In this document: positions 3,610 to 39,841 of the stretch, one piece after another
Numbering within the stretch: the stretch's first letter is position 1
How the letters are laid out: the number at the start of each line of letters is the position of its first letter
Assembly (NCBI RefSeq): GCF_050320075.1
Contig: NZ_CP190018.1
Source of the DNA: Escherichia coli
GTDB lineage: Bacteria > Pseudomonadota > Gammaproteobacteria > Enterobacterales > Enterobacteriaceae
Length of the DNA: 64,000 bases
Reading direction: 5' to 3' (one strand)
The notes under the pieces: model-generated
Database searches by the model: none
Told to the model about the DNA's origin: nothing
Seen by the model: only the letters and a program-made list of their open reading frames with translations
Translations under genes and position numbers: made by a program

Positions 3610-6501
<2,892 letters not shown>

Positions 6502-26783: not shown

Positions 26784-27140
26784 TCAGAAAAGAGAAGATT
26801 GCTGTGGAATAGCCGGAACTGCTCCGATCTCTGGAAGCGTTTTACGTAAGTCTTCCCACAGGGTATGTACCAGTTCCGGGGCCTGGGCAATATCTGGCGT
26901 ATGTAAAAAAAGATAAGGCGTAGTGGTCTGATGCCACTGCGCTAATTTTTGTAACCAGACCTGAAATAATTCCCGGTTTTGCGTCATATCATCACTACCG
27001 ATAAAACGGATCAGCGGATTTGTCGCCGTCAGTACAGCATGTACCGGAACTTTAGGTTTTTTTCGTTGAGCGTCGCGAATAGCTTCACTGTGTGGACGTG
27101 CTGCATGAACCGGGCGGCTGTCTAAAATCATCAAGGTCTA
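26784..27140 (-). pseudogene. yecE: yecE (DUF72) C-terminal fragment, separated from its N-terminal part by the 12.2-kb insertion
   Basis: ..ILDSRPVHAARPHSEAIRDAQRKKPKVPVHAVL..PQQSSLF continues exactly from the fragment ending ..GVNRVI at 39363-39841. Confidence 0.9.
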
Positions 27141-27157
27141 AATGCACTACATGGGCA
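27125..27157. other. attL (attB left half / AAAATCA core / attP right arm GTCTAAATGCAC)
   Basis: Chromosomal CTGTCT + AAAATCA + element TCAAGGTCTAAATGCAC. See the att reconstruction finding. Confidence 0.75.
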
Positions 27158-27193
27158 CCTAAACATATACATGTGATGTTGAGGTGTTAGAAA

Positions 27194-27209
27194 GGGGGCT
27201 GTTCAGCCC
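27194..27209 (-). terminator. Hairpin downstream of the 306-aa gene
   Basis: GGGGCTG (27194-27200) pairs with CAGCCCC (27203-27209). On the minus strand it is followed by CTTTCT. Confidence 0.5.
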
Positions 27210-27218
27210 CTGATAGAC

Positions 27219-28139
27219 TTAGTAATTATCCCTGACAACTTCATCATATCTTTCAATGAAGGTTAGTTGTTTATTACTTCCATTATAACTATCAACCCAT
27301 TTGTCTACAGCTTCATCGAATAGAAATAAAAAATCCGTATAATTTATATACACTACATTATCATAATATTGGGTTGGGTGACCTCTTTTACATACAGCAA
27401 TACTAAGACGTCTTTCTTTACCCTGAGTAACTTTGTGTGAATTAAGATTAGTCATGTGAAGCAATGAGTTCCTTAATTCATATAATTCGTCGGAAGTTAC
27501 TCCAAGTTTTTGTATATCTGAGTATGTATCTAACCAATTTTGAAAGACTCTTCTTTTGTTTCCAAACTCAATATAAGCTATAGTATCAATAAATGACATT
27601 AATAGCTTGAAGCTTGACAAGTAATGTTTTTTGTTAAACAGAAGCTTTATTGGTTCCATATGGTCATCATTAAGAAGTTCCTTAATGTGAAAACCATCAT
27701 CTTTCATATACTTATCAAGATAGTCTGGCAAGTCTTTTACACCTTCAATGTGATAGTTAGGTGTGTGCTTATTCCTTAATTGCTCTGACATTGATAACTG
27801 AATATCATATTGTAATTTGCCTTTAACAACGGGGGTGACTATAGCTAAAGGGTTTTCAGGTGCATTTTGAGCTTCTAATGCTAATTCAAACGGAGCAAAA
27901 GGATTACCAATCCGCAAATTTGCATTATATCTTTCAAGTGTCAATTTGTCATTTTCTAAAACAGAAGGGTGTATCCCATAAAATAAACGACAAGAAGCTA
28001 AGTCAATCTCCAAATTCCGCTTTAAAAAATCTAATTTTTGCGCATCATCGCCATCATGTTCGTGAGGTACTATTCCGGCATGTGTGATATGAACTCCATC
28101 AGGACTAAAGCAAAATATGTTGTAGATAATCTCTTTCAT
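27219..28139 (-). CDS. Hypothetical accessory protein with a C-terminal HEPN-like RNSLLH (Rx4H) motif; possible Abi-type RNase
   Basis: 306-aa ORF, very AT-rich, at the element edge. R223-N-S-L-L-H228 is encoded at 27456-27473, within a helical C-terminal half. The N-terminus has a His/Asp cluster, HITHAGIVPHEHDGDD. Confidence 0.35.
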   Translation of the reverse strand: MKEIIYNIFCFSPDGVHITHAGIVPHEHDGDDAQKLDFLKRNLEIDLASCRLFYGIHPSVLENDKLTLERYNANLRIGNPFAPFELALEAQNAPENPLAIVTPVVKGKLQYDIQLSMSEQLRNKHTPNYHIEGVKDLPDYLDKYMKDDGFHIKELLNDDHMEPIKLLFNKKHYLSSFKLLMSFIDTIAYIEFGNKRRVFQNWLDTYSDIQKLGVTSDELYELRNSLLHMTNLNSHKVTQGKERRLSIAVCKRGHPTQYYDNVVYINYTDFLFLFDEAVDKWVDSYNGSNKQLTFIERYDEVVRDNY

Positions 28140-28400
28140 ACCATTCTAACCTTCAGTGAAAATAAAGTTTTAACTATCATTAGATTATGAACAATCACAA
28201 TTGGCCTGTAAATAACAGGGCATAAACAGGTTCGTTTAGCTTGATTTTATCACTATAACTGTCTGATTTAACGGTAACTCACCAAGTATACACACAGTAA
28301 TTACACAATCCTGTTATTATGTAACTTATTGAAATATATAAATAATTTTTACATTCTTTGTTTGGGGTAAGCTGTGTAATGTTAGTCGTCCCTCTCCAGA

Positions 28401-28444
28401 CACTATATATAGTGCTATATACAGGACTATATAACGATATATAG
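28401..28444. repeat. CTATATA box array (12-bp period), including the 14-bp palindrome CACTATATATAGTG
   Basis: CTATATA at 28403, 28415 and 28427, plus an inverted copy at 28438-28444. Palindrome at 28401-28414. Confidence 0.7.
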
Positions 28445-28742
28445 ATGTTTGGTCACATGGTATAACTATCAAACCACTTAACGATTTCCTACGTGAAAGT
28501 TAGAAAGTGATAGTTATAGTTACCTTGTCAAATCTTCGTAGTCCCTTCTTAAAAAATCGTGAAAGGTAATCTTGTTATCTATACAGAATCTACGTAGATG
28601 CTTCTTAGTGCGCAAAACAGCTATTATGTTAAAAACGCACTGTATACGTATCAGTACTGATTTATAAGGGTTTTGTGTATTGGCTGATAAGAGGCTATAC
28701 AGCACCTTGAGAGCATGTCTTCTAAGTCATTGACATATAAGG

Positions 28743-28820
28743 TCACAGAAGTTTGTAGCTGTTACAGAGAAAACTGGATAGGACTTCACAGAACTATAAA
28801 ATGTTACAGCTATTGATAGG
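28743..28820 (+). repeat. Two tandem 43-bp units TCACAGAA..GTTACAG..GATAGG
   Basis: TCACAGAA at 28743 and 28786; GTTACAG at 28761 and 28803; GATAGG at 28777 and 28815. Confidence 0.65.
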
Positions 28821-28832
28821 TGAAATCTTCTT

Positions 28833-29050
28833 GATAGATGCTTTGAAGTGTGGTGAAGGCTTTTTGAGGTGGGGCTAAACAGATATCATGAAGAAAGTCA
28901 ATAGTTGATTCGGTTTATCGAATAAACCTCATAGATATTTTAAAATTCTGCAAAGGGGGTCACATAGCTGGTGTGACGGGTACTTAGCAGCTACAGACAT
29001 CTATCAGATATTTTTGAAGATTTTTAGAAGGGGAATTTGAAGAGGGGCTA
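28833..29050 (+). repeat. Two ~45-bp degenerate direct repeats ending in TTTGARGWGGGGCTA, 172 bp apart
   Basis: Copies at 28833-28877 and 29005-29050 align over TTTGAAG..GAAGG..TTTGA(G/A)G(T/A)GGGGCTA. Confidence 0.6.
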
Positions 29051-29249
29051 CTACGATTTTATAAAAATTTTCAGATTCTGAAAAGTTACTGTACAGAATA
29101 TGTACAGATATCTTTAAAGTATCTGTAAAAACTTTTAAGATAAAAGATAGATATCCCAGAAAGGATATCCGTTTAGAAAACCTATTAAGTATCTCTTAAA
29201 AGAGAGTAAACCTTGTCAAGAGTGATTGCAATAAAAATTTTTATTTCTT

Positions 29250-29912
29250 ATGTCAATTGAGTGTATTTTAATCGGGAAACATCATGGGGGTTCTGATTAC
29301 TGGAGAACTCCATTTTTGTTATTTAAGAACTTACACCGTGAATTTATTTTCAGTCTGGATGGTGCTGCAACTAAGCACGATACGTTATTACCCCGCTTTA
29401 CGGATGATATTCACAATCAGTCATGGGATGGTGAACGGGTATTCTGTAACCCACCATACAGCGACACTAAAACATTCCTCGTAAAAGCGTCTGAGGCAGA
29501 TTTATCGGTATTCCTGATACCGTACCGACCCCAAACCATATACTGGCTTAAGCACATCTTCACAAACCCGCTTTGCCATGAAATCCGTATTCTTCATCGT
29601 GCAGTTAAATACCTTCCACCAGCAGGGCATAACAGGCTTACTATTAGGTCGCCGTTTCCAAGTGCAGTCGTTGTTTTTAAAAAAGAACCACGCAGGCATG
29701 AAATTACGCAGATGGTTTGCTGTGCTGATACATTGCTACCGTTAACCATCATTAACAGAGGAGGCTTGAGAGGAAGGCCCACCATTTACCCACCTGAGAC
29801 GCTCGACAGCTTCATAAAACTATACAGGCAAGGCAAACCCATTAAGTGCATTGCAGATGCTCTCAGAATGCCTCTGAGCACGTCATACAGGATTGCTCAA
29901 AGGTTGAGCTAG
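29250..29912 (+). CDS. Phage Dam-family N6-adenine DNA methyltransferase with a C-terminal HTH extension
   Basis: GSDYWRTPFLLF..FSLDGAAT..W.GERVFCNPPYSD matches the phage N6A-MTase family (DxWxTP, LDxAA, NPPY). Residues ~170-220 (GRPTIYPPETLDSFIKLYRQGKPIKCIADALRMPLSTSYRIAQRL) look like a resolvase-type HTH. Confidence 0.75.
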   Translation: MSIECILIGKHHGGSDYWRTPFLLFKNLHREFIFSLDGAATKHDTLLPRFTDDIHNQSWDGERVFCNPPYSDTKTFLVKASEADLSVFLIPYRPQTIYWLKHIFTNPLCHEIRILHRAVKYLPPAGHNRLTIRSPFPSAVVVFKKEPRRHEITQMVCCADTLLPLTIINRGGLRGRPTIYPPETLDSFIKLYRQGKPIKCIADALRMPLSTSYRIAQRLS

Positions 29913-30016
29913 AATTCTCATAAATATGGTCATTTACAAGACAGGTGATTTAGATATTAAGAGGTATCCCTGTGAACAATAAATGACCAATCAGTAATTA
30001 TCCTGTGAAATAATTG

Positions 30017-30045
30017 TTGCAATTTATAATCACACATGGTATAGT
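30017..30045 (+). promoter_or_regulatory. Sigma-70 promoter with extended -10
   Basis: TTGCAA (30017-30022), 17 nt spacer containing TGg, then TATAGT (30040-30045). Confidence 0.6.
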
Positions 30046-30052
30046 TTCATAG

Positions 30053-30255
30053 TGGACTGATAAAAAAGTTCATGTCTTGAAGTGGTAACACTTGGGGAGG
30101 TGTCAGATGATTGACGTATATTAACCTCTCATTCATGGTAATACCTCAGCGTTTTAATCATCGTACTGTTTCAGGCATGGACTTCTTTATCAGTCCATCA
30201 ATCCCCCAGATATTTTAATCACACAGGCTAATCGGTTTTATCCGGTTGGCCTTTT
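30053..30255 (+). ncRNA. Structured ~200-nt leader or small RNA ending in an intrinsic terminator just upstream of rep
   Basis: 22-nt closing helix 30053-30074 / 30176-30197 (20 WC pairs, 1 GU, 1 AC). GNRA hairpin at 30080-30093. Hairpin at 30095-30130. Terminator stem 30226-30235 / 30242-30251 followed by TTTT. Confidence 0.5.
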
Positions 30256-30276
30256 CACGTATGAGGTAATTTATGA

Positions 30277-31245
30277 ATGAAAAAAGAAACTAATGCTTTT
30301 ATTATGGTAGATAAACGAGTTGCACAATTCCCTAAAACATTAAAGCCAATTGACCGCTTGGTATATTTCACTATGCTGGATGGTGCTGATTATTACGAAT
30401 CTAAGTTCGGGAGATACGCACCAAGTATTGACTATTTGATGGTTATGTCTGGTGCTACACGTAATACAGTTATTGATTCACTTAAGAGACTTGAGTCACA
30501 CAGACTTATCGAAAAGACCAATGTAAAGGGTCAGCAAAGTATTTTTAAAGTATTCACGTTGGATGAGCGTCCAGAGGTCTTATCAGAACCTACCCTTGAT
30601 GAGCGTCGTAGAGCTAAATTATCAGGTCAACCAGAATCTGACAGTAACCCAACCAAAAATTGGTTACCTACCCAACCAGAATTTGGTTACCTACCTAACC
30701 AGAATTTGGTTACATGTAATACTGAATATAAAGACAAAAATATAAATACTGAAGAAGAAAGACTAAAAGGGAACTTTGAAGAAGAATCTCTTAAGAAGGG
30801 AGCTTCGCTCTGTGATTCACATGAATGTGATATTAAAGAAGATGACTTTCTTTCTTTGGATGAATTAAATGATTTTCTCTCTATGAATGAATCTGGCCTT
30901 GATAGTGAAGCTACTAAAGAGGCTGTTAAAAAGGAAGATAAAATCTCTGATGTGAATATCGATAGTGACCATAAAAACACACAGTGCCCCGCCACTGATG
31001 ATGAGATGGACCCCTTCGATGATTACCTTGATGAAGAGTCAGAGCGTGAAAAAGCCATTAAGAGGGTAGAGAAGAAAAAGAGATTCGAGCTTGCAAGACA
31101 AAAGAACAAAGTATCGGGTTTAGACCCATTCGATGACAGTGACGATGATGACTTTTCTTTCACACCAAGAAAGAAACAAACTCAGGATGACAAGAAGCAA
31201 AAAATTAAACCGAAGATGTATTTTGCTGGTGGAGGTATGCGCTAA
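30277..31245 (+). CDS. Replication initiator (N-terminal winged-HTH, acidic C-terminal tail)
   Basis: 322 aa. The N-terminus ..IDRLVYFTMLDGADYY..YLMVMSGATRNTVIDSLKRLESHRLIEK.. resembles HTH_36-type Rep or lambda-O-like initiators. Iterons lie inside the ORF. SD GAGGT at 30263-30267. Confidence 0.55.
   Translation: MKKETNAFIMVDKRVAQFPKTLKPIDRLVYFTMLDGADYYESKFGRYAPSIDYLMVMSGATRNTVIDSLKRLESHRLIEKTNVKGQQSIFKVFTLDERPEVLSEPTLDERRRAKLSGQPESDSNPTKNWLPTQPEFGYLPNQNLVTCNTEYKDKNINTEEERLKGNFEEESLKKGASLCDSHECDIKEDDFLSLDELNDFLSMNESGLDSEATKEAVKKEDKISDVNIDSDHKNTQCPATDDEMDPFDDYLDEESEREKAIKRVEKKKRFELARQKNKVSGLDPFDDSDDDDFSFTPRKKQTQDDKKQKIKPKMYFAGGGMR
30629..30719 (+). repeat. Iteron array (candidate ori): three 23-bp units plus one degenerate unit, each with an AACCAnAAnTTGGTT palindrome, followed by an AT-rich tract
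   Basis: Units start at 30651, 30674 and 30697 (AACCA(A/G)AATTTGGTTACCTACC). Degenerate unit at 30629-30650. AT-rich tract at 30715-30760. Confidence 0.65.
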
Positions 31246-31541
31246 TGAAAGAATATCACGGTGAAAAGAGATACAAAGATTACCTGTTAAAGCGTTATAG
31301 CATTTCTCGTGAAGGCCACTTAATGAAGGATACTCACGGGGAAGTTTACCGGATTAGACCGAAGAAAGAAGGGAGGGATTATTTCTTTTACGATGGTGTG
31401 ACAGATTTAAAGATTGATGCTTTGAAGTTTGCGGCGCTGTATCATTATGATATCTGGGACTCAGTCCACCAGCTACGATTAAAAGACGGTGACCCCGGTA
31501 ATCTGAGGGCCACCAATATTATCAAGGGAAAGTGCCGGTAA
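31245..31541 (+). CDS. Hypothetical 98-aa protein, weakly NUMOD4/HNH_3-like (degenerate)
   Basis: ATGA overlap with the rep stop; GGAGG SD. YSISREGHL.. and VHQLRLKDGDPGNLRATNI loosely recall homing-endonuclease-type DNA-binding modules. Confidence 0.3.
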   Translation: MKEYHGEKRYKDYLLKRYSISREGHLMKDTHGEVYRIRPKKEGRDYFFYDGVTDLKIDALKFAALYHYDIWDSVHQLRLKDGDPGNLRATNIIKGKCR

Positions 31542-31550
31542 GTCCACCAG

Positions 31551-31727
31551 CTATTTATTTATTGAAATCTCTATCTCAACACGAAGAAGTTTAAGTCGAA
31601 TTGTAAGCTTTGTCTTTTTTGTAATGACTCGATTCATAACGCAAAACACCAATAGCACAATAAATACCGCAAAGCCCAACGAGCTAAAACGATGAGATTC
31701 AATAATTGCTGTGAAAAAATCATGCAT
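31551..31727 (-). CDS. Small single-pass membrane protein (58 aa)
   Basis: MHDFFTAIIESHRFSSLGFAVFIVLLVFCVMNRVITKKTKLTIRLK... AAGGA SD 6 nt upstream. Own promoter at 31778-31806 on the minus strand. Confidence 0.45.
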   Translation of the reverse strand: MHDFFTAIIESHRFSSLGFAVFIVLLVFCVMNRVITKKTKLTIRLKLLRVEIEISINK

Positions 31728-31777
31728 TAATTTTCCTTTTGCGAAAGGAAACAGCACCTGTATCAGCCCCTATAACC

Positions 31778-31828
31778 ATAATATCATGTAAATGAGATGT
31801 TGACAATATGTTAAATAAATGTTATGAT
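31778..31828. promoter_or_regulatory. Back-to-back divergent sigma-70 promoters with overlapping -35 hexamers
   Basis: Plus strand: TTGACA (31800-31805), 17 nt, TATGAT (31823-31828). Minus strand: TTGTCA (complement of 31801-31806), 17 nt, TATTAT (complement of 31778-31783). Confidence 0.65.
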
Positions 31829-31864
31829 TGTAGTATGAGTAAGAGATTTAAGGAGATTTTTACA

Positions 31865-32155
31865 ATGACTCACACAGTTACGCGCCTTTTGCCAGAGGCA
31901 TTTGAACGACTGGCAGCAATCAAAGCCAAATATCCCGATATGAAGCACACAGCGCTTGTTGGAGAGCTTTTAAAAGAGTCGGTAACCCTGACCCCTTTCG
32001 ATAACGTTAAGGGCGTTGCAGAGGGTTCTAAGGCCATCAGAATCACAACGGACCAACTGGAACTACTCAAAGCACAGTCCGCAGTAGCAGGTTGCTCAAT
32101 GATTCAGGTGTTAAGCGCAAAGGTCCATCAATTAGCGGATAGGCTGGGGGTTTAA
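31865..32155 (+). CDS. Tandem ribbon-helix-helix (RHH) protein, candidate switch repressor
   Basis: 96 aa. Two strand-helix-helix patterns (TVTRLLPEAFERLAAIKAKY..HTALVGELLKES and AIRITTDQLELLKAQSAVAG.SMIQVLSAKVHQLADRL). AAGGAG SD at 31850-31855. Confidence 0.4.
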   Translation: MTHTVTRLLPEAFERLAAIKAKYPDMKHTALVGELLKESVTLTPFDNVKGVAEGSKAIRITTDQLELLKAQSAVAGCSMIQVLSAKVHQLADRLGV

Positions 32156-32580
32156 TGCTATGCACATTTGATTATCATGCGTTTTATCGCCATAGAGGCC
32201 ACCTTGTCCGTGAGAATAGCGGAACATGGAAAGATTTAACTCGTAATGCTGAACCCTTCACACACCAGCAATTAAAATCCCGCTTCTCCAGATGGAAGAA
32301 TGCACCAGCAGATACTGGTGATTTTGAGATTATCCATACCTTCGATTATGCCTCAGAAGATGACCTTCACGATGCAATTAAGCTGATTGAAGACTTCAAT
32401 ACCTCAGAAGATGTGGATGGTGACAAATATAAATCCCGTGGTAACCGCTATAACCGTGATGATATCACTCAGGCCATAAATGCTGGTCAATCTCAGCGAT
32501 ACATTACAGAAAAATATGGTATTTCACGGAGACAGTATTTCTACGTTAAATCATTGATTAATAAAGACAATTCAAAATAA
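32155..32580 (+). CDS. Hypothetical 141-aa protein with C-terminal HTH
   Basis: TAATG overlap with the upstream gene. The C-terminus DDITQAINAGQSQRYITEKYGISRRQYFYVKSL resembles a resolvase/terminase-small-type HTH. Confidence 0.4.
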   Translation: MLCTFDYHAFYRHRGHLVRENSGTWKDLTRNAEPFTHQQLKSRFSRWKNAPADTGDFEIIHTFDYASEDDLHDAIKLIEDFNTSEDVDGDKYKSRGNRYNRDDITQAINAGQSQRYITEKYGISRRQYFYVKSLINKDNSK

Positions 32581-32741
32581 CCATCTCAGTAACGGTAGAA
32601 TGCACTTTACAGGCAGAGTTGCACCTTAATTTGATAAATTACCTTACCAGCCAGTGCAACTCCCTCTGTAACCCGCATGATTACTGGTCTCAGAATGGCT
32701 ATTTTAAGAGGTCTGAGATGTGTTTTGTAGGAGATTTAAAA

Positions 32742-33065
32742 ATGAACAACTTCCCATTACAGATTTTCGTTGATAACGACACCGCTATGATGGTGCAAAG
32801 CTTCAGTGATGCAGGTATTAGCATTGATTTTGACAGGCTGTTAAAGCTAATGGCTGATAATGAAGAAAACGTCTCTGACTTTATTCACTCGGTGGAGTTT
32901 AACGAGCCTCGAATGATGTTACCAATTACAGACAGTAATATGAAAAGATTGGTTATTGAGCAAACGAACAAATACAGTATTTCCCCAGAGCAATTTTTGA
33001 AAGGTGCTGTGACAATCCTGTACAGCGATAATATTTTGGTTACGGATTCCGTGAGGGTTCACTAA
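32742..33065 (+). CDS. Hypothetical 107-aa protein
   Basis: ATG at 32742 preceded by GTAGGAG. The longer ORF-track start (32619) lies in a structured non-coding leader. Confidence 0.45.
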   Translation: MNNFPLQIFVDNDTAMMVQSFSDAGISIDFDRLLKLMADNEENVSDFIHSVEFNEPRMMLPITDSNMKRLVIEQTNKYSISPEQFLKGAVTILYSDNILVTDSVRVH

Positions 33066-33142
33066 TGGGCTTAATAATTGCTTGGACGTTGCTTGGCTTA
33101 TTTGTTGGTTGCTGGGTAGGCAGCACAGTAAATAGAAATTGA
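33065..33142 (+). CDS. Possible 25-aa hydrophobic peptide MGLIIAWTLLGLFVGCWVGSTVNRN
   Basis: TAATG stop-start overlap with the upstream ORF. GAGGG lies 7 nt upstream. One predicted TM helix. Confidence 0.3.
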   Translation: MGLIIAWTLLGLFVGCWVGSTVNRN

Positions 33143-33166
33143 TGTTACCAATCTGTTAAAAAGCTG

Positions 33167-33195
33167 TTGACAAATAACCTTAAGCATGAGATGAT
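33167..33195 (+). promoter_or_regulatory. Candidate promoter, paralogous to the 31800 promoter
   Basis: TGTTGACAA..17 nt..GATGAT, compared with TGTTGACAA..17 nt..TATGAT at 31798-31828. Confidence 0.4.
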
Positions 33196-33636
33196 GGTAA
33201 TAGGGGAGAGCAACTCTCTCTTATTTTTCTTTCAAAATAATCCGATGGATGGATATTCTGAATTGGAAAGGTGCAATGCTTTTCGTCATGGCCTTTCAGT
33301 TTAGTCTGAGAGGCTATCTCAAAAAGTGCTTAATCATTCATTGAACCCTTTACAGCTTTGCCCTAACTCATGATTAGGGCTTTCTTTAAGAGTTTTTAAA
33401 CAGAGCTTTTAAAGAAAGTTTTTCCTGAAACTTCGTTAACGTTAAAGCAAACCTTCAAAGCCCTTCACAGATGAGGATGATTCCATGAATATCCGAATCA
33501 CCTATGTTTAGGGCTTTTTTCAGCTTTTAAAAAGCATACTTGGCAAACGCCTTTTAAGCCTCTTCTAAGTTCGAGGATGTCAGGTGTGCTTTTTAAAAAC
33601 TGAAACATAAATTATCTTAGAAGAGGAAAGGTATTA

Positions 33637-34341
33637 ATGGCTATCCGTGATGAAAATGAAATGATTATTGAAAACAAACCAAGTGCACTTGATATTCACG
33701 AATTAAGTTTGCGTGAATCTTTTGATAGAGCTTGGCGGGAATCACACGAAGTAAATAAAGGTCCATATATTCCACCAGAACCACTCGAGATTCCAAGAGT
33801 TGAAATTGATTTTTCTATGAACGAACGGTGTGAACTTGATTTGAAGTTGAAGCTACAACGCCGATATTTCCAAGCTATTAAAGACTCTCAAGAAGCAATG
33901 AGAAGTGTTTATGAGAAAATTCAGTCCAAGCTTGAAGACGAAATTGACGAAATGGCTATTTTGATGGAGCTTCAAACCAATCCTTATGCTTATTTCTCTC
34001 GACTAGACCGTGACGGTTGGGGGTATGACCCTGTAGAGATTGGTAAAGTGATTGCAGATTTACCAGAAGGTCAAAGGGTTATTCGTACGGAAAGGGCCAT
34101 CAGAGCGCCACATCAACTGTCTCTAATTGTTGCTGATAAATCACAAGCTGAGCTTGAAGAAATTGCCAAAGAGAAACTGATGAAAGCAAGAGAAAATGAG
34201 ATTAATTTGCTGAAATCAAGACTGGCTAAGCTGATTAGTGACCATCAAGCGCTGGCTAAGGAGTACCGTCAAGAGTTGGCACAGATTATCAGCTTCAATG
34301 ATTTTCTGAGTGTTCCACGAGAATTTAGCAAGGCTGTTTGA
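33637..34341 (+). CDS. Hypothetical 234-aa coiled-coil-rich protein
   Basis: Good SD (GAGGAAAGG). Charged heptad-like C-terminal third. No family recognised. Confidence 0.5.
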   Translation: MAIRDENEMIIENKPSALDIHELSLRESFDRAWRESHEVNKGPYIPPEPLEIPRVEIDFSMNERCELDLKLKLQRRYFQAIKDSQEAMRSVYEKIQSKLEDEIDEMAILMELQTNPYAYFSRLDRDGWGYDPVEIGKVIADLPEGQRVIRTERAIRAPHQLSLIVADKSQAELEEIAKEKLMKARENEINLLKSRLAKLISDHQALAKEYRQELAQIISFNDFLSVPREFSKAV

Positions 34342-34364
34342 TTATGAATTAAAAGAGGTGATTA

Positions 34365-34583
34365 ATGTATGAAGACCGTTTGGAAACTATCAAGGCAGTT
34401 TGTGAAAAACTTAAAAACCAACCACGTAAACCAAAAACGGTAAAGAGTAAGCATCAGCCTGTCACCTCAAACAGCAAAATAAAGATTCGCAAAATTCCTT
34501 CGTGGTGCATTGACCGTATTCCGGTTGGTTCAAGAATTATTCGTGAAGATGGTGATTATCATTGGGTATCAGTTGTTGGTTAG
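34365..34583 (+). CDS. Hypothetical 72-aa basic protein
   Basis: AAGAGGTG SD. No family recognised. Confidence 0.45.
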   Translation: MYEDRLETIKAVCEKLKNQPRKPKTVKSKHQPVTSNSKIKIRKIPSWCIDRIPVGSRIIREDGDYHWVSVVG

Positions 34584-34598
34584 TTAGTAAAAATCTAC

Positions 34599-34638
34599 GG
34601 GAGAGATTATCGAGTGATATCGGTAGCTCTCCCTTTTT
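34599..34638 (+). terminator. Intrinsic terminator immediately upstream of the tape-measure gene
   Basis: GGGAGAG (34599-34605) pairs with CTCTCCC (34627-34633), with an inner helix, followed by TTTTT. Confidence 0.7.
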
Positions 34639-34671
34639 CGTATATGAACACTTAAGAGGTGAAAAATATGA

Positions 34672-36804
34672 ATGAGCAAATTCACAGTTGATAGTTTTAT
34701 CGTTGAATTAAGCTTCAATGAAAACATTATTAAGGGCTTGCAAAGAGTTGAAAAGGCAGCTTTGCAGTCAGCACAAAGAATTGAAAAGAACCTAAATAAA
34801 GGTTTCAGGATTAATACAAAGCAGCTTGATAGTAATTTAACGGCTTCTTTAGGGCAGCTTGAAAGGAAGTTTAATAAGGCCTTTGACAAGATTGAACAGA
34901 GAGCAAGAAATACTAAAGCTTTCCAGTTTACCACCAGATTTAATGACACTGTTAATCCTCCAAAACAACCGAGACAGCCACGAATTAGCGGCAACAGAGC
35001 AATCACAGCAGCTTACTCAGCGAATATGAGCAAGCTAAAAGGCTTTGACCCTATTTTGCAGAAATACATCAAATCTCAGTTTTACGGGCTATCTGCTAAA
35101 GCCGGTTCAATGGATTCTTCAAAATTCAATGAGAAGTTAGCTCAGTTAAACGCTTCAGTCAGAGAAGCAATTGCTAAAGCCAGAGGTCATACATCCACCA
35201 GCATTAATGGTGACAGAGCAGCTAATAGTCTTGATAACCTGTCTTCAGCAGCAGTTAAAACAGCAGGTGCATTTATCTCAATGCAGGCTGTATTAGCCAG
35301 TTATCAGAAGATTATGGAAATTGGTTTACAGCGTGCAAGTGCTGAACGTTCAATTGATTTCGTATTTGATAAAGATGCAGGTCAAGTAAAAGAGTTCACA
35401 AAGTCATTAGCTCAAACAACGGGTTTAGATATCGCTGAACTGCAATCACAGTTTGCTGGTTTTGGTGCTTCAGCTAAAGAGTCTATGGGCATTCAAGGTT
35501 CTGAAGAACTTTTTAAAAATATGATTGGCTATGCTCGTCTGATGGGGAGAAGTGAAGAAGAGATTAAGCGAGCACTGACAGCATTATCACAGATGGCTGG
35601 TAAGGGTCAGGTTATGGCTGAAGAGCTTAAGGGGCAATTAGCTGAAGCTGTTCCTGGTATGGTTCAGGTATTCGCTAAAGCAACCGGAAGGAATGAACAA
35701 GAGCTATTTGATGCCATGAAGAAGGGGGCTTTAAAATCTGCCGATACTCTTCAGAAGGTCACTCAGGAACTGAATAAACAAATCACCGCTAAAGGTGGCT
35801 GGAAAGCTATTTCAGAAAGTACACAGGCACAACTAGGGAACCTGAAAAACTCTTGGAATACCACGCTTGATAGTATCTTCAGAGGTTCTGAAGATGGTCT
35901 GCAAGATTTTACAAGAAGCTTAACAACGCTTTTAAACGCTCTTGGTGGAAGTGGTAAAAGTCTTGGTGAATCTCTTGGTAGTCTCATGACTTCTATGTCA
36001 CATGGTGTCGATTCATTGACTGATATCAGCTACAGGGTAAGAGCATTCTTCGATGAGGTGACATTAGCTTACCGTTCACTAAATGACACTCAGAAAAAAA
36101 TTGTTGATGGTTTATCTGATGGGTTAATTGATGGTTTGAAGATGCTTGCCGTAGCTGTTACTGCTCAAAAGGCTGCAAATGTAGCTGGAGGCTTGTTAAA
36201 CCTTGCAAATGCTGTTACTTCATTCGGTGATGCTGTTAATAAAGCTAAAGCTGGCAAGGCTGGTTCTTCAGGTGGTGCGCTAAATAAAGTTGGTAGAGTT
36301 GTTCTTTATGCTGAGTTGGTGAACTTTGCTCTTGATAATTTAAACCCTGAAGCGGCTAAGAATCCGAACTTACACCAATCAGGTATTGGAACAGAGACAA
36401 ACTTCAACCCTGAATACAAAGGCGATTCATCTAAACCAAACCAAATTAATGATGGATGGGCTAAGATTGGTAGTTCTATCGCTGACTGGTTTAATGGTGC
36501 GGCTAATAAAATTGCTAACTTCCAAGACCCGATGAATAACTTTGTTAATAACACACAATCAACTCCACCAGCTATCACAGGTGACATGGTTAATAGCAAT
36601 GCTCAACTTGCTATGGCTGTATCAGAGTTAGGAAGAAAGGTAGACGCTTTAACAGTAGAAGCTAAGAAGCCTTTATCAGTTAATATCAAAGGTGAAGCAA
36701 TTGTTAGACCGGATGAACCAGCTTTCTTTACTTTCAATCAATCAGCTAATGACCAGTTCACGCAGGATATGCTCTTAAGTTCAAGCTATCCAGAGGAAGA
36801 ATGA
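34672..36804 (+). CDS. Phage tail tape measure protein
   Basis: 710 aa. The segment ..RALTALSQMAGKGQVMAEELKGQLAEAVPGMVQVFAKATGRNEQELFDAMKKGALKS.. matches the conserved tape-measure core (lambda-type tape_meas domain). Long helical, Gly/Ala-rich remainder. Confidence 0.8.
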   Translation: MSKFTVDSFIVELSFNENIIKGLQRVEKAALQSAQRIEKNLNKGFRINTKQLDSNLTASLGQLERKFNKAFDKIEQRARNTKAFQFTTRFNDTVNPPKQPRQPRISGNRAITAAYSANMSKLKGFDPILQKYIKSQFYGLSAKAGSMDSSKFNEKLAQLNASVREAIAKARGHTSTSINGDRAANSLDNLSSAAVKTAGAFISMQAVLASYQKIMEIGLQRASAERSIDFVFDKDAGQVKEFTKSLAQTTGLDIAELQSQFAGFGASAKESMGIQGSEELFKNMIGYARLMGRSEEEIKRALTALSQMAGKGQVMAEELKGQLAEAVPGMVQVFAKATGRNEQELFDAMKKGALKSADTLQKVTQELNKQITAKGGWKAISESTQAQLGNLKNSWNTTLDSIFRGSEDGLQDFTRSLTTLLNALGGSGKSLGESLGSLMTSMSHGVDSLTDISYRVRAFFDEVTLAYRSLNDTQKKIVDGLSDGLIDGLKMLAVAVTAQKAANVAGGLLNLANAVTSFGDAVNKAKAGKAGSSGGALNKVGRVVLYAELVNFALDNLNPEAAKNPNLHQSGIGTETNFNPEYKGDSSKPNQINDGWAKIGSSIADWFNGAANKIANFQDPMNNFVNNTQSTPPAITGDMVNSNAQLAMAVSELGRKVDALTVEAKKPLSVNIKGEAIVRPDEPAFFTFNQSANDQFTQDMLLSSSYPEEE

Positions 36805-36967
36805 TTTCTTATATATCCGTGTGCTACGTGATTTCTTCTGAACAGATATACCCACTAAAAATTATTTTTTACGTAGCTCACGCTTAACAGAGAAAATACT
36901 TATATATCAAAGGCTTGGTTAAAAATGATTAAAATACACTAAGCCTTTGAAATCAAAGGAGAATTTA

Positions 36968-37741
36968 ATGATTTACTCTAATCAGATTCGTTACAGTGGT
37001 AAAGATGGCGTTTACTTTCATCTACAAGGCCAGCCAGATAATTTCTTGTCACTATCAGCTACTGAGAACATGGAATTTGACAGCCCTATGATGGTTACCA
37101 CTCAAAATATGCAATCAGGGCAGACTGTCACAGATAATGTAATGCGTTCACCCAGAACTATTTCAATCAGTGGTGTGGTTGTAGTTGGTGAATCCGGTAG
37201 TATCCTTATCTCAAGAGATAATAAGCTGGTGGAAAACTTCATAGACACTCTTGAAAACTGGCGTGACCAGAAGCAAATTATCTCAGTTGTCTGTAAAGAT
37301 GGTATTAAGATTGACGACTCAATTATTACAAACTTTAAAGCCTCTAAAGATGTTGGTATTGCCAATGGTCTTAGAATCCAATTAACTTTTCAGGAAATTA
37401 ACTTTAAAGCTATTGTGGGTCAGACTGATATCTCGGCTGCGACCGGAAGGACTTCTACCACAAGTGATGGTGGTGCTACCAGTAAAAAGAATACAGGGAA
37501 CACTACGACAAGCTTAGGTAACGGTATGTTGATGTGTCAGGAGCTATATAATCGCTCTACGAGTGAACTTACTAATGAGCAACTTCAAGCCCGTATCAAT
37601 TGTGGTAAAAATGTCAGAGTTAAGAACGGAAAAAGCACCTTCTCAGATGCCGCTAATGAGCAAGCTTCAAAGGTGCTTAATAATGCTGGTACAGGTAGTA
37701 CTTTGAAGAAGTATTCTGTTAATCCTAACAAGCGATACTGA
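36968..37741 (+). CDS. Tail-tip or distal-tail-like protein (family usually encoded just after tape-measure genes)
   Basis: 257 aa from [14 protein letters not shown].. (AAGGAG SD at 36956). The pattern [30 protein letters not shown] .. [12 protein letters not shown] resembles Dit-like tail proteins. Confidence 0.4.
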
Positions 37742-37755
37742 CGATAGAATCTCAA

Positions 37756-39279
37756 CTATATGATAACCTCATCAACATCTATTAAACCCCTCTCAGTGAC
37801 TTCAGAAAGCGACTGTATAGCCTCTGTAACGTTGTCTGAGGGGTTTTCTGTTATTGGTAAGGTGATTGCTTTACCGTTGTGAAAAGTTACTTTACAGCGA
37901 CGTTTAGCAGTATTTAAAACGACCTCTTTAACAGCACTTTTGATTATCAGTTGTGCTTCAATCCTTCCCGCCTTTGTAGTCAAGTCACAATCAGACAAAC
38001 AACCCACATCAATAGATTTAAGGCGTTGTGTCTCCTTCTCGATATCCGCATCAACTTGTGATAGCTCATTCTTTAGTTGTCTTAGTTTGCTGGTAATAGC
38101 GGACAAGTCTTCAATTTCAAGTGATAGCTGTACCAGCTTTTCAATATTGCTTGAGATGTGTTCACGGTGTAGCTTCAGTGTGTCTATGGTATTCGTCATA
38201 TCGCTATCAAATCGGTCAAGACGAGATAGCAGGGCAAGCAATGTACCATCGGTTTGCTTACGTGAAAGTCCTTTAGCACTACAACGGTTTTCATTACGAA
38301 GAGGACAACGATAAATCCCGTTTCTTGTATCGCTAAAGCCTGTGATAATCAAAGCATGACCACATTCAGAACAACGGATAACACCTTTGAAAAGATTCAC
38401 AGCCATTGGCTTATCTGAAGCAGGTTTTCTACCGTAACGAGCATATGATAGTTGTTGAACTTTGTAGAATGTTGTTTCATCTATAATTGCAGGATAATAA
38501 CCAGATATCTCCTCACAGCCTTTAGGTGTGAAGTAACCAATTACAGAGCGATTCTTCAAAAGGTCTTGCACTGAGGTTTGACCAAACTTACCTGCTTTGT
38601 ACTGGTTAAGCGTCTGGTGACCTTCAGCATTAAGAGTTCTGACAATCTCCCAGATAGACTTACCCTCTAACCGTAGCTGAAAGCACCTCTTCACAGTCTC
38701 CACTTTCTCAGGTATCACAGAGAAGCTTTTACGGTCATCATTAAGCTTAAGCCATGCAGGACAACGCCTAGAAATCTTGATACCAGCTTTAGCAGCTTCT
38801 TTCTTTGCATCCCATGCAGCTTGTATACGCTCAGCCTTACGTAATGATTCCTCATGCGCCCTTTGCATTATCAAAATGCTTTTAATCAGAGCTAACGGGT
38901 CTTTAAGAGATTCCCTTGTGTAATGTTCACCATCGGACAGGGTGACTACATCTACACCAGAGCGAAGAATGTTTCTGAGTAGCTCACTTGCTTGGTCTAC
39001 GTCCTGACGTGAGAGACGGTCTAAACTCTCGATTAGTAGTGTATCACCAGCTTTAACAAGCCCTTTCTCGATAGCGGTTAAAAAGTCACCTAAGCCACCT
39101 TTCAAGTGCTTACCAGTGAACCCGCTAACGCCTAAATCACGAAAAGTAAGGGATTCATCCAGATAGTACTCAGGATGAGCCTTAAGCCAATCAGTGACCA
39201 TCTTAGCCTGTCGTCTTAATGAGTCGCCTCTGGATTGCTTCTCAGATGAAAACCGGATGTAACTGATTGCACGTTTCAT
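37756..39279 (-). CDS. Large serine recombinase (integrase)
   Basis: 507 aa. N-terminal resolvase catalytic domain (AISYIRFSSEKQSRGDSLRRQ), recombinase domain, Cys-rich zinc ribbon (CSECGH..YRCP..C), and C-terminal coiled coil. Confidence 0.9.
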   Translation of the reverse strand: MKRAISYIRFSSEKQSRGDSLRRQAKMVTDWLKAHPEYYLDESLTFRDLGVSGFTGKHLKGGLGDFLTAIEKGLVKAGDTLLIESLDRLSRQDVDQASELLRNILRSGVDVVTLSDGEHYTRESLKDPLALIKSILIMQRAHEESLRKAERIQAAWDAKKEAAKAGIKISRRCPAWLKLNDDRKSFSVIPEKVETVKRCFQLRLEGKSIWEIVRTLNAEGHQTLNQYKAGKFGQTSVQDLLKNRSVIGYFTPKGCEEISGYYPAIIDETTFYKVQQLSYARYGRKPASDKPMAVNLFKGVIRCSECGHALIITGFSDTRNGIYRCPLRNENRCSAKGLSRKQTDGTLLALLSRLDRFDSDMTNTIDTLKLHREHISSNIEKLVQLSLEIEDLSAITSKLRQLKNELSQVDADIEKETQRLKSIDVGCLSDCDLTTKAGRIEAQLIIKSAVKEVVLNTAKRRCKVTFHNGKAITLPITENPSDNVTEAIQSLSEVTERGLIDVDEVII

Positions 39280-39340
39280 TGTTCACCTCACCAATAGCAG
39301 TTGGGCTTGTACCAACCCCTAGATTGTATCGCTTTAGATG

Positions 39341-39369
39341 GTGTATTTAAACGTGTCTAATAAAAATCA
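39341..39369. other. attR (attP left arm GTGTATTTAAAC / AAAATCA core / attB right half follows)
   Basis: Element GTGTATTTAAACGTGTCTAAT + AAAATCA, then chromosomal CCCGATTAACG. Confidence 0.75.
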
Positions 39370-39841
39370 CCCGATTAACGCCGCGCTGATGTAAACCGCG
39401 ATTAAGCGTTTGTTCCTCTTCCCCTTTGGCGAAAAACTGTGGATGGCGGACTTCCACACCATAATTAAATTCGCCGGGAAGGGAATCGAGAAAATGCCAA
39501 AGCGCAGGCAGATCCCGTGGGCCAAATGTGGCAGGCAGTTGCAGCCAGTATTGCCCAATGCGCGGCGCTAACGGTGACATGCGGGTCAAAAATTCAGTCA
39601 CTAAATCATCGCAATGCCGTAATGCTGCCTGATGCGAAATGGTCGCCGGAAACTTAAAACAGAAGCGAAAATTATCTGTGGTCTGCTCACGCCAGCGCAG
39701 GACAACCTCGGATTTCGGCAGGGCGTAAAGCGTGGTGTTGCCCTCCACACAGTTAAAGTGGCGGGCATACTCTTCAAGGCTGGTGATCCCCAACCGCACC
39801 CATTTAGGATGCGACCATTGCGGCAGACCGATGTAAATCAT
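39363..39841 (-). pseudogene. yecE: yecE N-terminal fragment (159 native codons, then 5 element-encoded codons and a stop)
   Basis: [48 protein letters not shown] followed by FIRHV-stop read from element DNA. Confidence 0.9.

Follow-up and report, generated by a model that had tools for sequence, protein, structure and literature searches.

The window analysed here, a 64,000-nucleotide stretch of Escherichia coli DNA (contig NZ_CP190018.1 of assembly GCF_050320075.1), carries the E. coli genes cmoB, cmoA, yecN, yecE, yecD and aspS, among which yecE (encoding a DUF72 protein) is interrupted by a 12,239-bp element, probably a phage satellite, that is the subject of this text. Strains YZLc1-3 and Ec-U3 have the segment in their chromosomes with 100% identity, and the yecE site is uninterrupted in 5139 of 5426 complete E. 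coli genomes. Since the flanks restore an intact yecE when they are joined via one AAAATCA (26824-27130 followed by 39370-39669, with a single copy of the core, is 100% identical to the intact gene of many genomes), the element can be delimited to 27131-39369. The two yecE fragments add up to 472 + 347 nt = 819 nt, that is, 272 codons and a stop, as counted in a preliminary description of this DNA, which had rightly recognised a gene split by insertion. That description had also placed the right copy of the AAAATCA repeat correctly (39363-39369); the left copy lies at 27124-27130 and not at 27134-27140, 10 bp away, and with it the end of the yecE C-terminal fragment is corrected from 27140 to 27130 and the size of the insert from 12,229 to 12,239 bp. 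That the insert is more AT-rich than its surroundings is borne out by its GC content, 38.6% vs 51% in both flanks; the figure for Felixounavirus phages, which are central to what follows, is 38.9%. All four attachment sites (attB, attL, attR and attP) could be recovered, with a common core of 7 bp, and attL and attR are also present in relatives of the element (loci L013, L015, L021, L027 and L067). The features of the element are listed in Table 1.

The most telling of these features are two tail genes, the only virion genes of the element, which lie in the same order as in phage garuso (garuso_118 and garuso_119). The gene thought to encode a tape measure protein (TMP) is indeed one according to profile matches (Table 1), while the 'distal-tail-like' gene of the preliminary description matches the Dit_like family (PF21821), its actual role being that of the tube initiator of a contractile tail; the matching protein in PDB entry 9ndy (phage Bas63), gp018, is labelled 'Tube initiator protein' and the match covers residues 11-263. 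This tube initiator shares 71% amino acid identity with garuso_119, the gene next after the TMP in garuso, and only 57% with the phage in its C-terminal extension. Among 50,697 phage records, its homologs are limited to Ounavirinae, as is the homology of the TMP, and the DNA matches of the element to Felixounavirus only, strictly virulent Felix O1-like myoviruses with genomes of ~86 kb. The TMP shows another pattern, with 28% identity to the garuso TMP overall, ~80% over the first ~45 residues and near-identity over the last 13 (...LLSSSYPEEE), the middle being divergent, and the last 30 nt of the gene are 97-100% identical to garuso. These conserved ends around a divergent middle are present in eight satellites, and satellite TMPs, at 682-724 aa, are 11-53 aa shorter than the 735-aa garuso protein. 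In phage Bas63, the TMP meets the hub and the puncturing protein with its last 25 residues, and a hexamer of the tube initiator adapts the C3 hub to the C6 tube (PMC12609058), from which it follows that the satellite proteins retain those regions that are in contact with helper proteins. In two relatives (L020 and L028), the gene for the tube initiator is 90-92% identical to garuso at the nucleotide level, which argues for recent recombination between satellite and phage. One 'Staphylococcus' and one 'Campylobacter' phage record also show similarity to the tube initiator region of Felixounavirus; mislabelling or contamination probably explains both, not an unusual host range.

Nothing else of a virion can be recognised. 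Profile searches of the element proteins against Pfam, PHROGs, NCBIfam and PADLOC found no capsid, portal, protease, scaffold, terminase, sheath, tube or lysis gene, in keeping with what had been noticed by eye, and neither these searches nor tblastn uncovered a capsid or terminase gene hidden among the orphans, a possibility that the preliminary description had raised.

Two pieces of non-coding DNA upstream of the Dam-Rep operon point to the same phages. One of them (28934-29096, 163 bp) is 70-79% identical to non-coding DNA of ~250 Felixounavirus records and to nothing else, and it spans the boundary of the direct terminal repeat (DTR) of phages MET-P1-301, ECP2307 and CRP22, with conserved blocks on either side (alignment A1), the phage genome end mapping to ~28970-28984. 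The terminal repeats of these phages measure 544, 592 and 579 bp, respectively, and a Felixounavirus DTR of 581 bp has been reported on the basis of PhageTerm (PMC8303462). Among relatives of the element, conservation of this stretch is 96-98% in L013 and L014 and 89% in L015, and other variants of the family contain different stretches of this phage region (DTR positions 250-311). In the phages, the 544-592-bp DTR lies between the two members of an inverted motif pair, GGTAGCCCTTAAC ... GTTAAGGGG, also given as GGTAGCCCTTAAC ... GTTAAGGGGC (L009/L010 for MET-P1-301; L072-L075 for ECP2307 and CRP22), which may represent terminase recognition or nicking sites, and the element has a diverged copy of one motif of this pair at the phage genome end. 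On the strength of these alignments, we read 28934-29096 as a putative mimic of the site that the helper terminase recognises and cuts. The other piece (29132-29240) shows 84-86% identity, in the same orientation, to the divergent intergenic region upstream of FelixO1 ORF84/garuso_95; its inverted repeat GATATCC-N6-GGATATC and the motif CCTTGTCAAG lie just before the start codon of Dam, and we read it as a putative helper-responsive operator/promoter. Adjacent in the element, the two pieces are ~7.7 kb apart in garuso (at ~50.0 and ~57.7 kb), and simple decay of a phage genome is disfavoured because they are rearranged with respect to the phage order.

Several smaller observations concern the same DNA. 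The interior of the DTR is full of TTAACAG/TAACAAG repeats. The hexamer AGATAT/ATATCT occurs six times in the 341 bp between 28860 and 29200 (17.6/kb, vs 1.4/kb in the whole element and 1.1/kb in garuso), several copies falling in blocks common to the element and the phage junction. Farther away, upstream of the gene for a 234-aa protein, the 15-mer CTTTTAAGCCTCTTC (33551-33565) recurs without mismatch in the phage DTR (position 361 of MET-P1-301) and has near-copies in the garuso non-coding region aligned with the DTR region; with ~0.01 matches expected by a hand estimate, it may be a phage regulatory motif or a product of chance.

The element is a member of a syntenic family of 11.2-12.2 kb and not a decayed prophage. 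Relatives were found in at least 473 of the 5426 complete E. coli genomes (~9%, or about 1 in 11), amounting to 541 copies that are all chromosomal, never on plasmids, with up to four per genome and a nucleotide identity of 67-100% in the tube initiator gene. They occupy at least three chromosomal sites (yecE, yciI/tonB and ymdF/wrbA), with different serine integrases, and protein relatives are annotated in E. coli, Shigella, Salmonella enterica, E. albertii and Citrobacter. The preliminary description had asked whether related elements are always of ~12 kb with the same gene set, and the answer is largely positive: the gene order in the copies that were fetched is constant (optional cargo, ~1 kb of non-coding DNA, Dam, Rep, small open reading frames (ORFs), the 234-aa gene, a 72-aa gene, TMP, tube initiator, integrase), and members of the yecE type measure 11,216-12,239 bp even though cargo, replication modules and integrases have been exchanged. 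The conserved core starts at 28322, and in four relatives (L016, L017, L027 and L028) the Rep module is replaced by a different one. A contig scan with a single tube initiator sequence returned two loci only, too few for a taxonomic survey, and the standalone contigs of ~12 kb that carry family proteins P0011 and P0020 proved to be integrated copies. Within the searchable full-text literature, which leaves subscription journals outside its coverage, no description of a Felixounavirus satellite was found.

In place of the lambda-O-like Rep, three members (L020:6039-6096, L025:5951-6039 and L028:4640-4707) carry a 58-89-bp copy, with 79-84% identity, of an ACC-rich repeat of garuso (5652-5740, annotated as repeat_region, between garuso_12 and the DNA ligase gene). 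This repeat might be an origin-like sequence of the phage, and satellites with the alternative module might borrow the replication machinery of the helper.

Closed-circle or head-to-tail forms of these elements occur in nature. When metagenome contigs were scanned for the satellite junction motif, 42 came up, one of which (L031; ERZ1090866 NODE_760, 11,473 bp) contains an entire family member in circularly permuted form, in which the right end is joined to the left via one core (...GTGTCTAATAAAAATCA joined to TCAAGGTCTAAAT..., also written ...TAATAAAAATCA joined to TCAAGGTC...). This is exactly the attP junction that had been predicted for a circular form. The ends of this contig fall in the iteron region of rep, the only repeat through which an assembler is unable to read. 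A second permuted contig of 10,636 bp (L051, SKEF01003551) and a fragment (L038, SKEP01004909; 1780-1840), which appear from their accession prefixes to come from one study, share an integrase gene that breaks off at an internal AAAATCA, to which the left end of the element is directly joined; this derivative seems to have arisen by recombination at a pseudo-att site and to be kept as an episome or a tandem array. Exact terminal overlaps were not found in the metagenome contigs, so that permutation and the attP junction are the only grounds for regarding L031 and L051 as circular. IMG/VR contains a single match to the pac-like motif.

Taken together, these findings make it likely that the element is an integrated satellite of virulent Felix O1-like myoviruses (Felixounavirus/Ounavirinae). 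It lacks capsid and packaging genes of its own, and it carries sequences specific to a helper (DTR junction, operator/promoter, TMP and tube initiator, with matches to Felixounavirus only), two of the traits by which satellites are generally recognised. The preference of the preliminary description for a helper-dependent satellite over random decay is thus upheld by the lack of a colinear phage or of hidden head genes, by constant size and gene order and by the attP contig. Its suggestion of a siphophage helper has to be abandoned, as the evidence points to strictly virulent Felix O1-like myoviruses, neither siphophages nor temperate, and induction by mitomycin C, which it had envisaged, is unlikely to be relevant because the helper is strictly virulent. 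We know of no temperate members of the Ounavirinae, which are virulent. More tentatively, and with somewhat less than even odds, the element could be the founding member of a widespread and undescribed family, parasitic on strictly virulent Felix O1-type phages of E. coli and Salmonella, that has no recognisable genes for capsid remodelling but replaces the tape measure and tube initiator of its helper and copies its DTR cutting site and a promoter, so that particles would combine helper heads and sheaths with an ejection apparatus specified by the satellite.

How such a satellite would operate can be sketched. Upon infection, a transcription factor of the helper, or one of the host modified by it, would fire the phage-like promoter of the Dam-Rep operon, after which the element would excise and replicate from its own iterons. 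The helper terminase would then recognise the junction mimic and package element DNA into heads made by the helper, possibly in multimeric form within T=9 heads (7 x 11.2-12.2 kb = 79-86 kb, vs a helper genome of 85-90 kb), although this seven-copy rule is speculative, being suggestive and not tight; alternatively, the 234-aa and 72-aa proteins specific to the element might help to form smaller heads. The TMP and tube initiator of the satellite would dock on helper hubs via their conserved ends, giving tails with a lumen and ejection apparatus specified by the satellite, and the yield of the helper would probably be lowered. Possible reasons for supplying just these two tail proteins include (i) an ejection channel adapted to the satellite, (ii) discrimination between tails and (iii) interference with the helper. 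As other satellites do, the element would carry exchangeable cargo, with a HEPN-like protein in the attL-proximal slot in the present case.

A number of points weigh against this picture. Encapsidation and transfer by the helper are proposed from sequence comparison. The phage end positions are those of the depositors' records and differ by ~14 nt between records; furthermore, the second, inverted boundary motif was not found in the element, which mimics one DTR boundary only, at 70-79% identity. No terS-like, capsid-size or anti-helper gene is recognisable, the structural model of the 234-aa protein is poor, and the methyltransferase and most ORFs are without an assigned role. As for the permuted contigs, they could in principle derive from tandem chromosomal copies; the attP pattern is absent from IMG/VR, and the family members in that database are all in contigs of 20-55 kb, which is consistent with integrated copies.

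An alternative, in line among other things with the absence of the attP pattern from IMG/VR, is that the element is an integrative anti-phage defence island that is not transduced at all, its tail homologs being dominant-negative decoys, its promoter an infection sensor and its junction mimic a means to titrate or misdirect the terminase. A TMP with conserved ends and a divergent middle would suit a poison subunit equally well, an operator/promoter mimic would be active only during infection, and the cargo slot with its HEPN-like gene would be at home in such an island. We nevertheless regard this explanation as unlikely, while taking it seriously, since a static island would have no need for a Rep with iterons, an integrase and a circular attP, which are traits of a moving, size-selected element; since the size range of 11.2-12.2 kb is narrow across swapped modules; and since spread over at least three sites and several genera, with recent exchange of phage genes, fits horizontal transfer. 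Known satellites also interfere with their helpers, so that a defensive role would overlap with that of a Felix O1-like satellite rather than compete with it.

Mobility without particles is the essence of another proposal, in which the element would be an integrative plasmid-like replicon, or a small one resembling integrative and conjugative elements, spreading for instance by mobilisation or transformation, whose tail genes and phage DNA were captured by recombination during infections. Its own iteron replicon speaks for this, as do the permuted contigs, including the derivative with a truncated integrase that would be able to persist only as an episome or tandem array. Profile searches found no relaxase, oriT, type IV secretion system or partition genes, however, the family never occurs on or as a plasmid in the 5426 complete genomes, and chance capture would leave unexplained why the DTR junction, the promoter and two interacting tail-lumen proteins with their contact ends are family-wide; we consider this proposal improbable. 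Least credible is that the element is a cryptic prophage, the deletion remnant of a larger temperate relative of Felix O1 that kept its integrase, replication module and two tail genes by chance. The presence of phage structural genes and phage-like non-coding DNA, and of insertion sequences or pseudogenes in some copies, would be expected of such a remnant, yet a colinear parent was sought in vain: megablast and blastn against the 50,697 phage records gave a best match that covers 5% of the segment, and there is no colinear prophage around the loci examined; a full-length colinear phage had been named in the preliminary description as a finding that would refute its reading. Moreover, each fetched copy is bounded by chromosomal genes at ~11-12 kb, the ORFs are intact, hundreds of copies retain the same two-gene subset despite their divergence, the non-coding pieces of phage origin are out of phage order, and Ounavirinae are, as far as is generally known, virulent without temperate members.

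If the element is a satellite of Felix O1-like phages, we rate it as a new family of phage satellites, which does not fit the P4-like, PICMI, PICI or cfPICI types compared below. Functionally it is closest to P4, and to the PLE (phage-inducible chromosomal island-like elements) and PICMI (phage-inducible chromosomal minimalist islands). Like the P4-like satellites of Enterobacteria, which use P2-like myovirus helpers, it is an integrated element of ~11-12 kb that has its own initiator, a putative helper packaging signal, helper-type promoters, a hotspot for defence cargo and a proposed myovirus helper, and no head or terminase genes. Unlike them, it would have a strictly virulent helper, and it has a large serine recombinase where P4 has a tyrosine integrase, a mimic of a DTR junction and not of cos, and tail-lumen proteins that P4 does not encode; the sid, psu, delta, epsilon and alpha primase-helicase families were not detected with Pfam and PHROGs, nor was DNA similarity of the P2/P4 type in the phage collection. 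With the PLE of Vibrio cholerae, parasites of the virulent phage ICP1, it shares a virulent myovirus as (here proposed) helper, a large serine recombinase, an initiator acting on iterons and an expected induction by infection and not by the SOS response. It differs in size (12 kb vs 18 kb) and in having no recognisable TcaP-like scaffold, and its proteins gave no PHROG, Pfam or PADLOC match to PLE proteins, whose core set includes a RepA_N-type initiator, TcaP, NixI and LidI, the generic large serine recombinase class being all that they have in common. Neither a tape measure nor a tube initiator is known to us from any PLE.

PICMIs fall well below the element in size and combine tyrosine-type integration with AlpA and fis/terS-type genes. 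None of the Fis-like, AlpA and TerS-like families was detected in our element, which has 12.2 kb and two virion proteins where PICMIs are not known to encode any. The PICMI is described as a small satellite of virulent phages in Vibrionaceae, with a reduced gene content and without capsid-remodelling genes, which is packaged as a concatemer in full-size helper heads (PMC10803314), a precedent for one of the two packaging routes proposed above. The phage-inducible chromosomal islands (PICI) and their capsid-forming variants (cfPICI), known from Enterobacteria and Gram-positive bacteria, are likewise integrated, helper-dependent and of comparable size, and cfPICIs encode part of the virion and steal the rest. 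In this respect the element would be their mirror image, since cfPICIs encode heads and steal tails, whereas it supplies two proteins of the tail interior and would need to take heads, and whatever else a tail requires, from the helper; genes for a tyrosine integrase, AlpA, Pri-Rep, TerS, capsid, portal or protease were not found in it. The impression of the preliminary description that the layout is unlike P4, PICI and cfPICI thus holds; for the PLE, which it also named, the profile searches detected no homology. As for the tail module of Felixounavirus itself, the copies in the element differ in being chromosomal and adjoining an integrase.

Satellites of virulent phages are known from Vibrio (PLE and PICMI), and we found none described for virulent coliphages or Salmonella phages. 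The matter is of some consequence as Felix O1-like phages have a classic role in the typing of Salmonella, and their use in biocontrol and therapy has often been proposed. If our interpretation is correct, (i) a parasite that is present in about 1 of 11 E. coli genomes and has relatives in Salmonella and Shigella would have an effect on phage yield, on gene transfer and on host range outcomes, and might be an important but hidden factor in how well these phages perform in typing, biocontrol and therapy, (ii) the substitution of tape measure and tube initiator would be a hijacking strategy unseen in other satellites, which can be checked against the Bas63 and Sf14 structures, (iii) the copy of the DTR junction would mark the likely terminase recognition region of Ounavirinae, of which no description was found in the literature examined, and (iv) the attL-proximal cargo slot would be a further place in which to look for new defence genes.

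Table 1. Features of the yecE element and its borders (positions in the window; a dot means that no strand applies; basis as given by profile, structure or DNA comparison)
Feature	Position	Strand	Basis
yecE C-terminal fragment (DUF72)	26784..27130	-	
attL core AAAATCA, left copy of 7-bp duplication	27124..27130	.	joined-flank identity to intact yecE
Variable cargo gene, 306 aa, candidate HEPN-like RNase or defence protein	27219..28139	-	
Conserved non-coding left core, many short repeats and palindromes	28322..28933	+	81-90% identity in L013, L014, partly L015
Candidate packaging site, homolog of unique-right-end/DTR-start junction of Felixounavirus	28934..29096	+	
Putative phage-like operator/promoter upstream of Dam-Rep operon	29132..29240	+	GATATCC-N6-GGATATC inverted repeat and CCTTGTCAAG
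N6-adenine DNA methyltransferase (Dam family), C-terminal helix-turn-helix (HTH)	29250..29912	+	PF05869 3e-14, HTH_7, phrog_111 2e-25, PADLOC orphan methyltransferase
Replication initiator (Rep), lambda-O-like N-terminal winged HTH	30277..31245	+	phrog_270/428/678, HTH_36
98-aa orphan, translationally coupled to Rep	31245..31541	+	88-95% conserved in relatives; no family match
68-aa small hydrophobic protein, divergent from operon of 115-aa ORF	31551..31757	-	97% conserved in L013, L014, L031
Overlapping divergent sigma-70-like promoters, candidate regulatory switch	31778..31828	.	11/12 and 10/12 consensus matches, each with TG extension
115-aa ORF (96 aa in the PGAP annotation)	31808..32155	+	no profile match
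141-aa orphan	32155..32580	+	
148-aa ORF (annotated as 107 aa), kept even in members with other replication module	32619..33065	+	
Non-coding gap with promoter and terminator-like hairpins	33066..33636	+	
234-aa element-specific protein, long helices, first gene of TMP operon	33637..34341	+	
72-aa orphan directly upstream of TMP	34365..34583	+	
Tape measure protein (TMP), Felixounavirus type	34672..36804	+	PF20155, phrog_4036 1e-79; PDB 9ndy gp017 4e-65
Tail tube initiator protein (Dit-like), Felixounavirus type	36947..37741	+	PF21821, phrog_3721 5e-128; PDB 9ndy gp018 5.5e-114
Large serine recombinase (integrase), 507 aa, adjoins attR	37756..39279	-	PF00239, PF07508, PF13408, phrog_95 2e-79
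attR core AAAATCA	39363..39369	.	joined-flank identity to intact yecE
yecE N-terminal fragment	39370..39841	-	

Among the remaining genes (Table 1), the integrase has the Resolvase (N-terminal), Recombinase and Zn_ribbon_recom domains that define the large serine recombinase class to which it had been assigned. The methyltransferase was also correctly recognised as Dam-type, with an HTH at its C-terminus in addition. The gene taken for an iteron-bearing Rep does match replication-initiator and O-like PHROGs, and its three tandem 23-bp iterons (30647-30715), which lie within the gene, form an internal candidate origin. When Dam, Rep and the 98-, 115-, 141-, 148-, 72- and 68-aa proteins were concatenated and compared with the phages by tblastn, all 30 matches listed (evenly spaced among 584 records) fell within Dam. 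The cargo gene occupies an attL-proximal slot (27150-28321) in which relatives have other genes or none.

The 68-aa ORF was left unannotated by PGAP, the NCBI annotation pipeline. The regulatory switch of the ribbon-helix-helix type that had been suggested for this region has no profile support as far as the ribbon-helix-helix protein is concerned; a switch fits only by virtue of the strong divergent sigma-70-like promoters. Another sigma-70-like promoter (TTGACA-17-GATGAT with TG, 33167-33195) lies in the 570-bp gap before the 234-aa gene, with a terminator-like hairpin directly after it (33199-33225) and one more at 33360-33380, and the gap is a possible small RNA or attenuator; Rfam gave nothing credible, this gap included. 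The 72-aa ORF was considered as a tape measure chaperone and rejected, being dissimilar to the phage chaperone.

The 234-aa protein is a candidate morphogenesis or hijack factor, whose homologs are confined to Enterobacteriaceae chromosomes, with zero tblastn matches in the 50,697 phages. Its AlphaFold2 model (mean confidence, pLDDT, of 57; helices 60-114 and 170-224) is too poor for a fold search. In two relatives, L014 (10187-10897, strain MIN10) and L031 (rotated, 5761-6471), the same slot holds a gene of equal length with only ~25% identity, which suggests that this slot evolves much faster than its neighbours or is exchanged.

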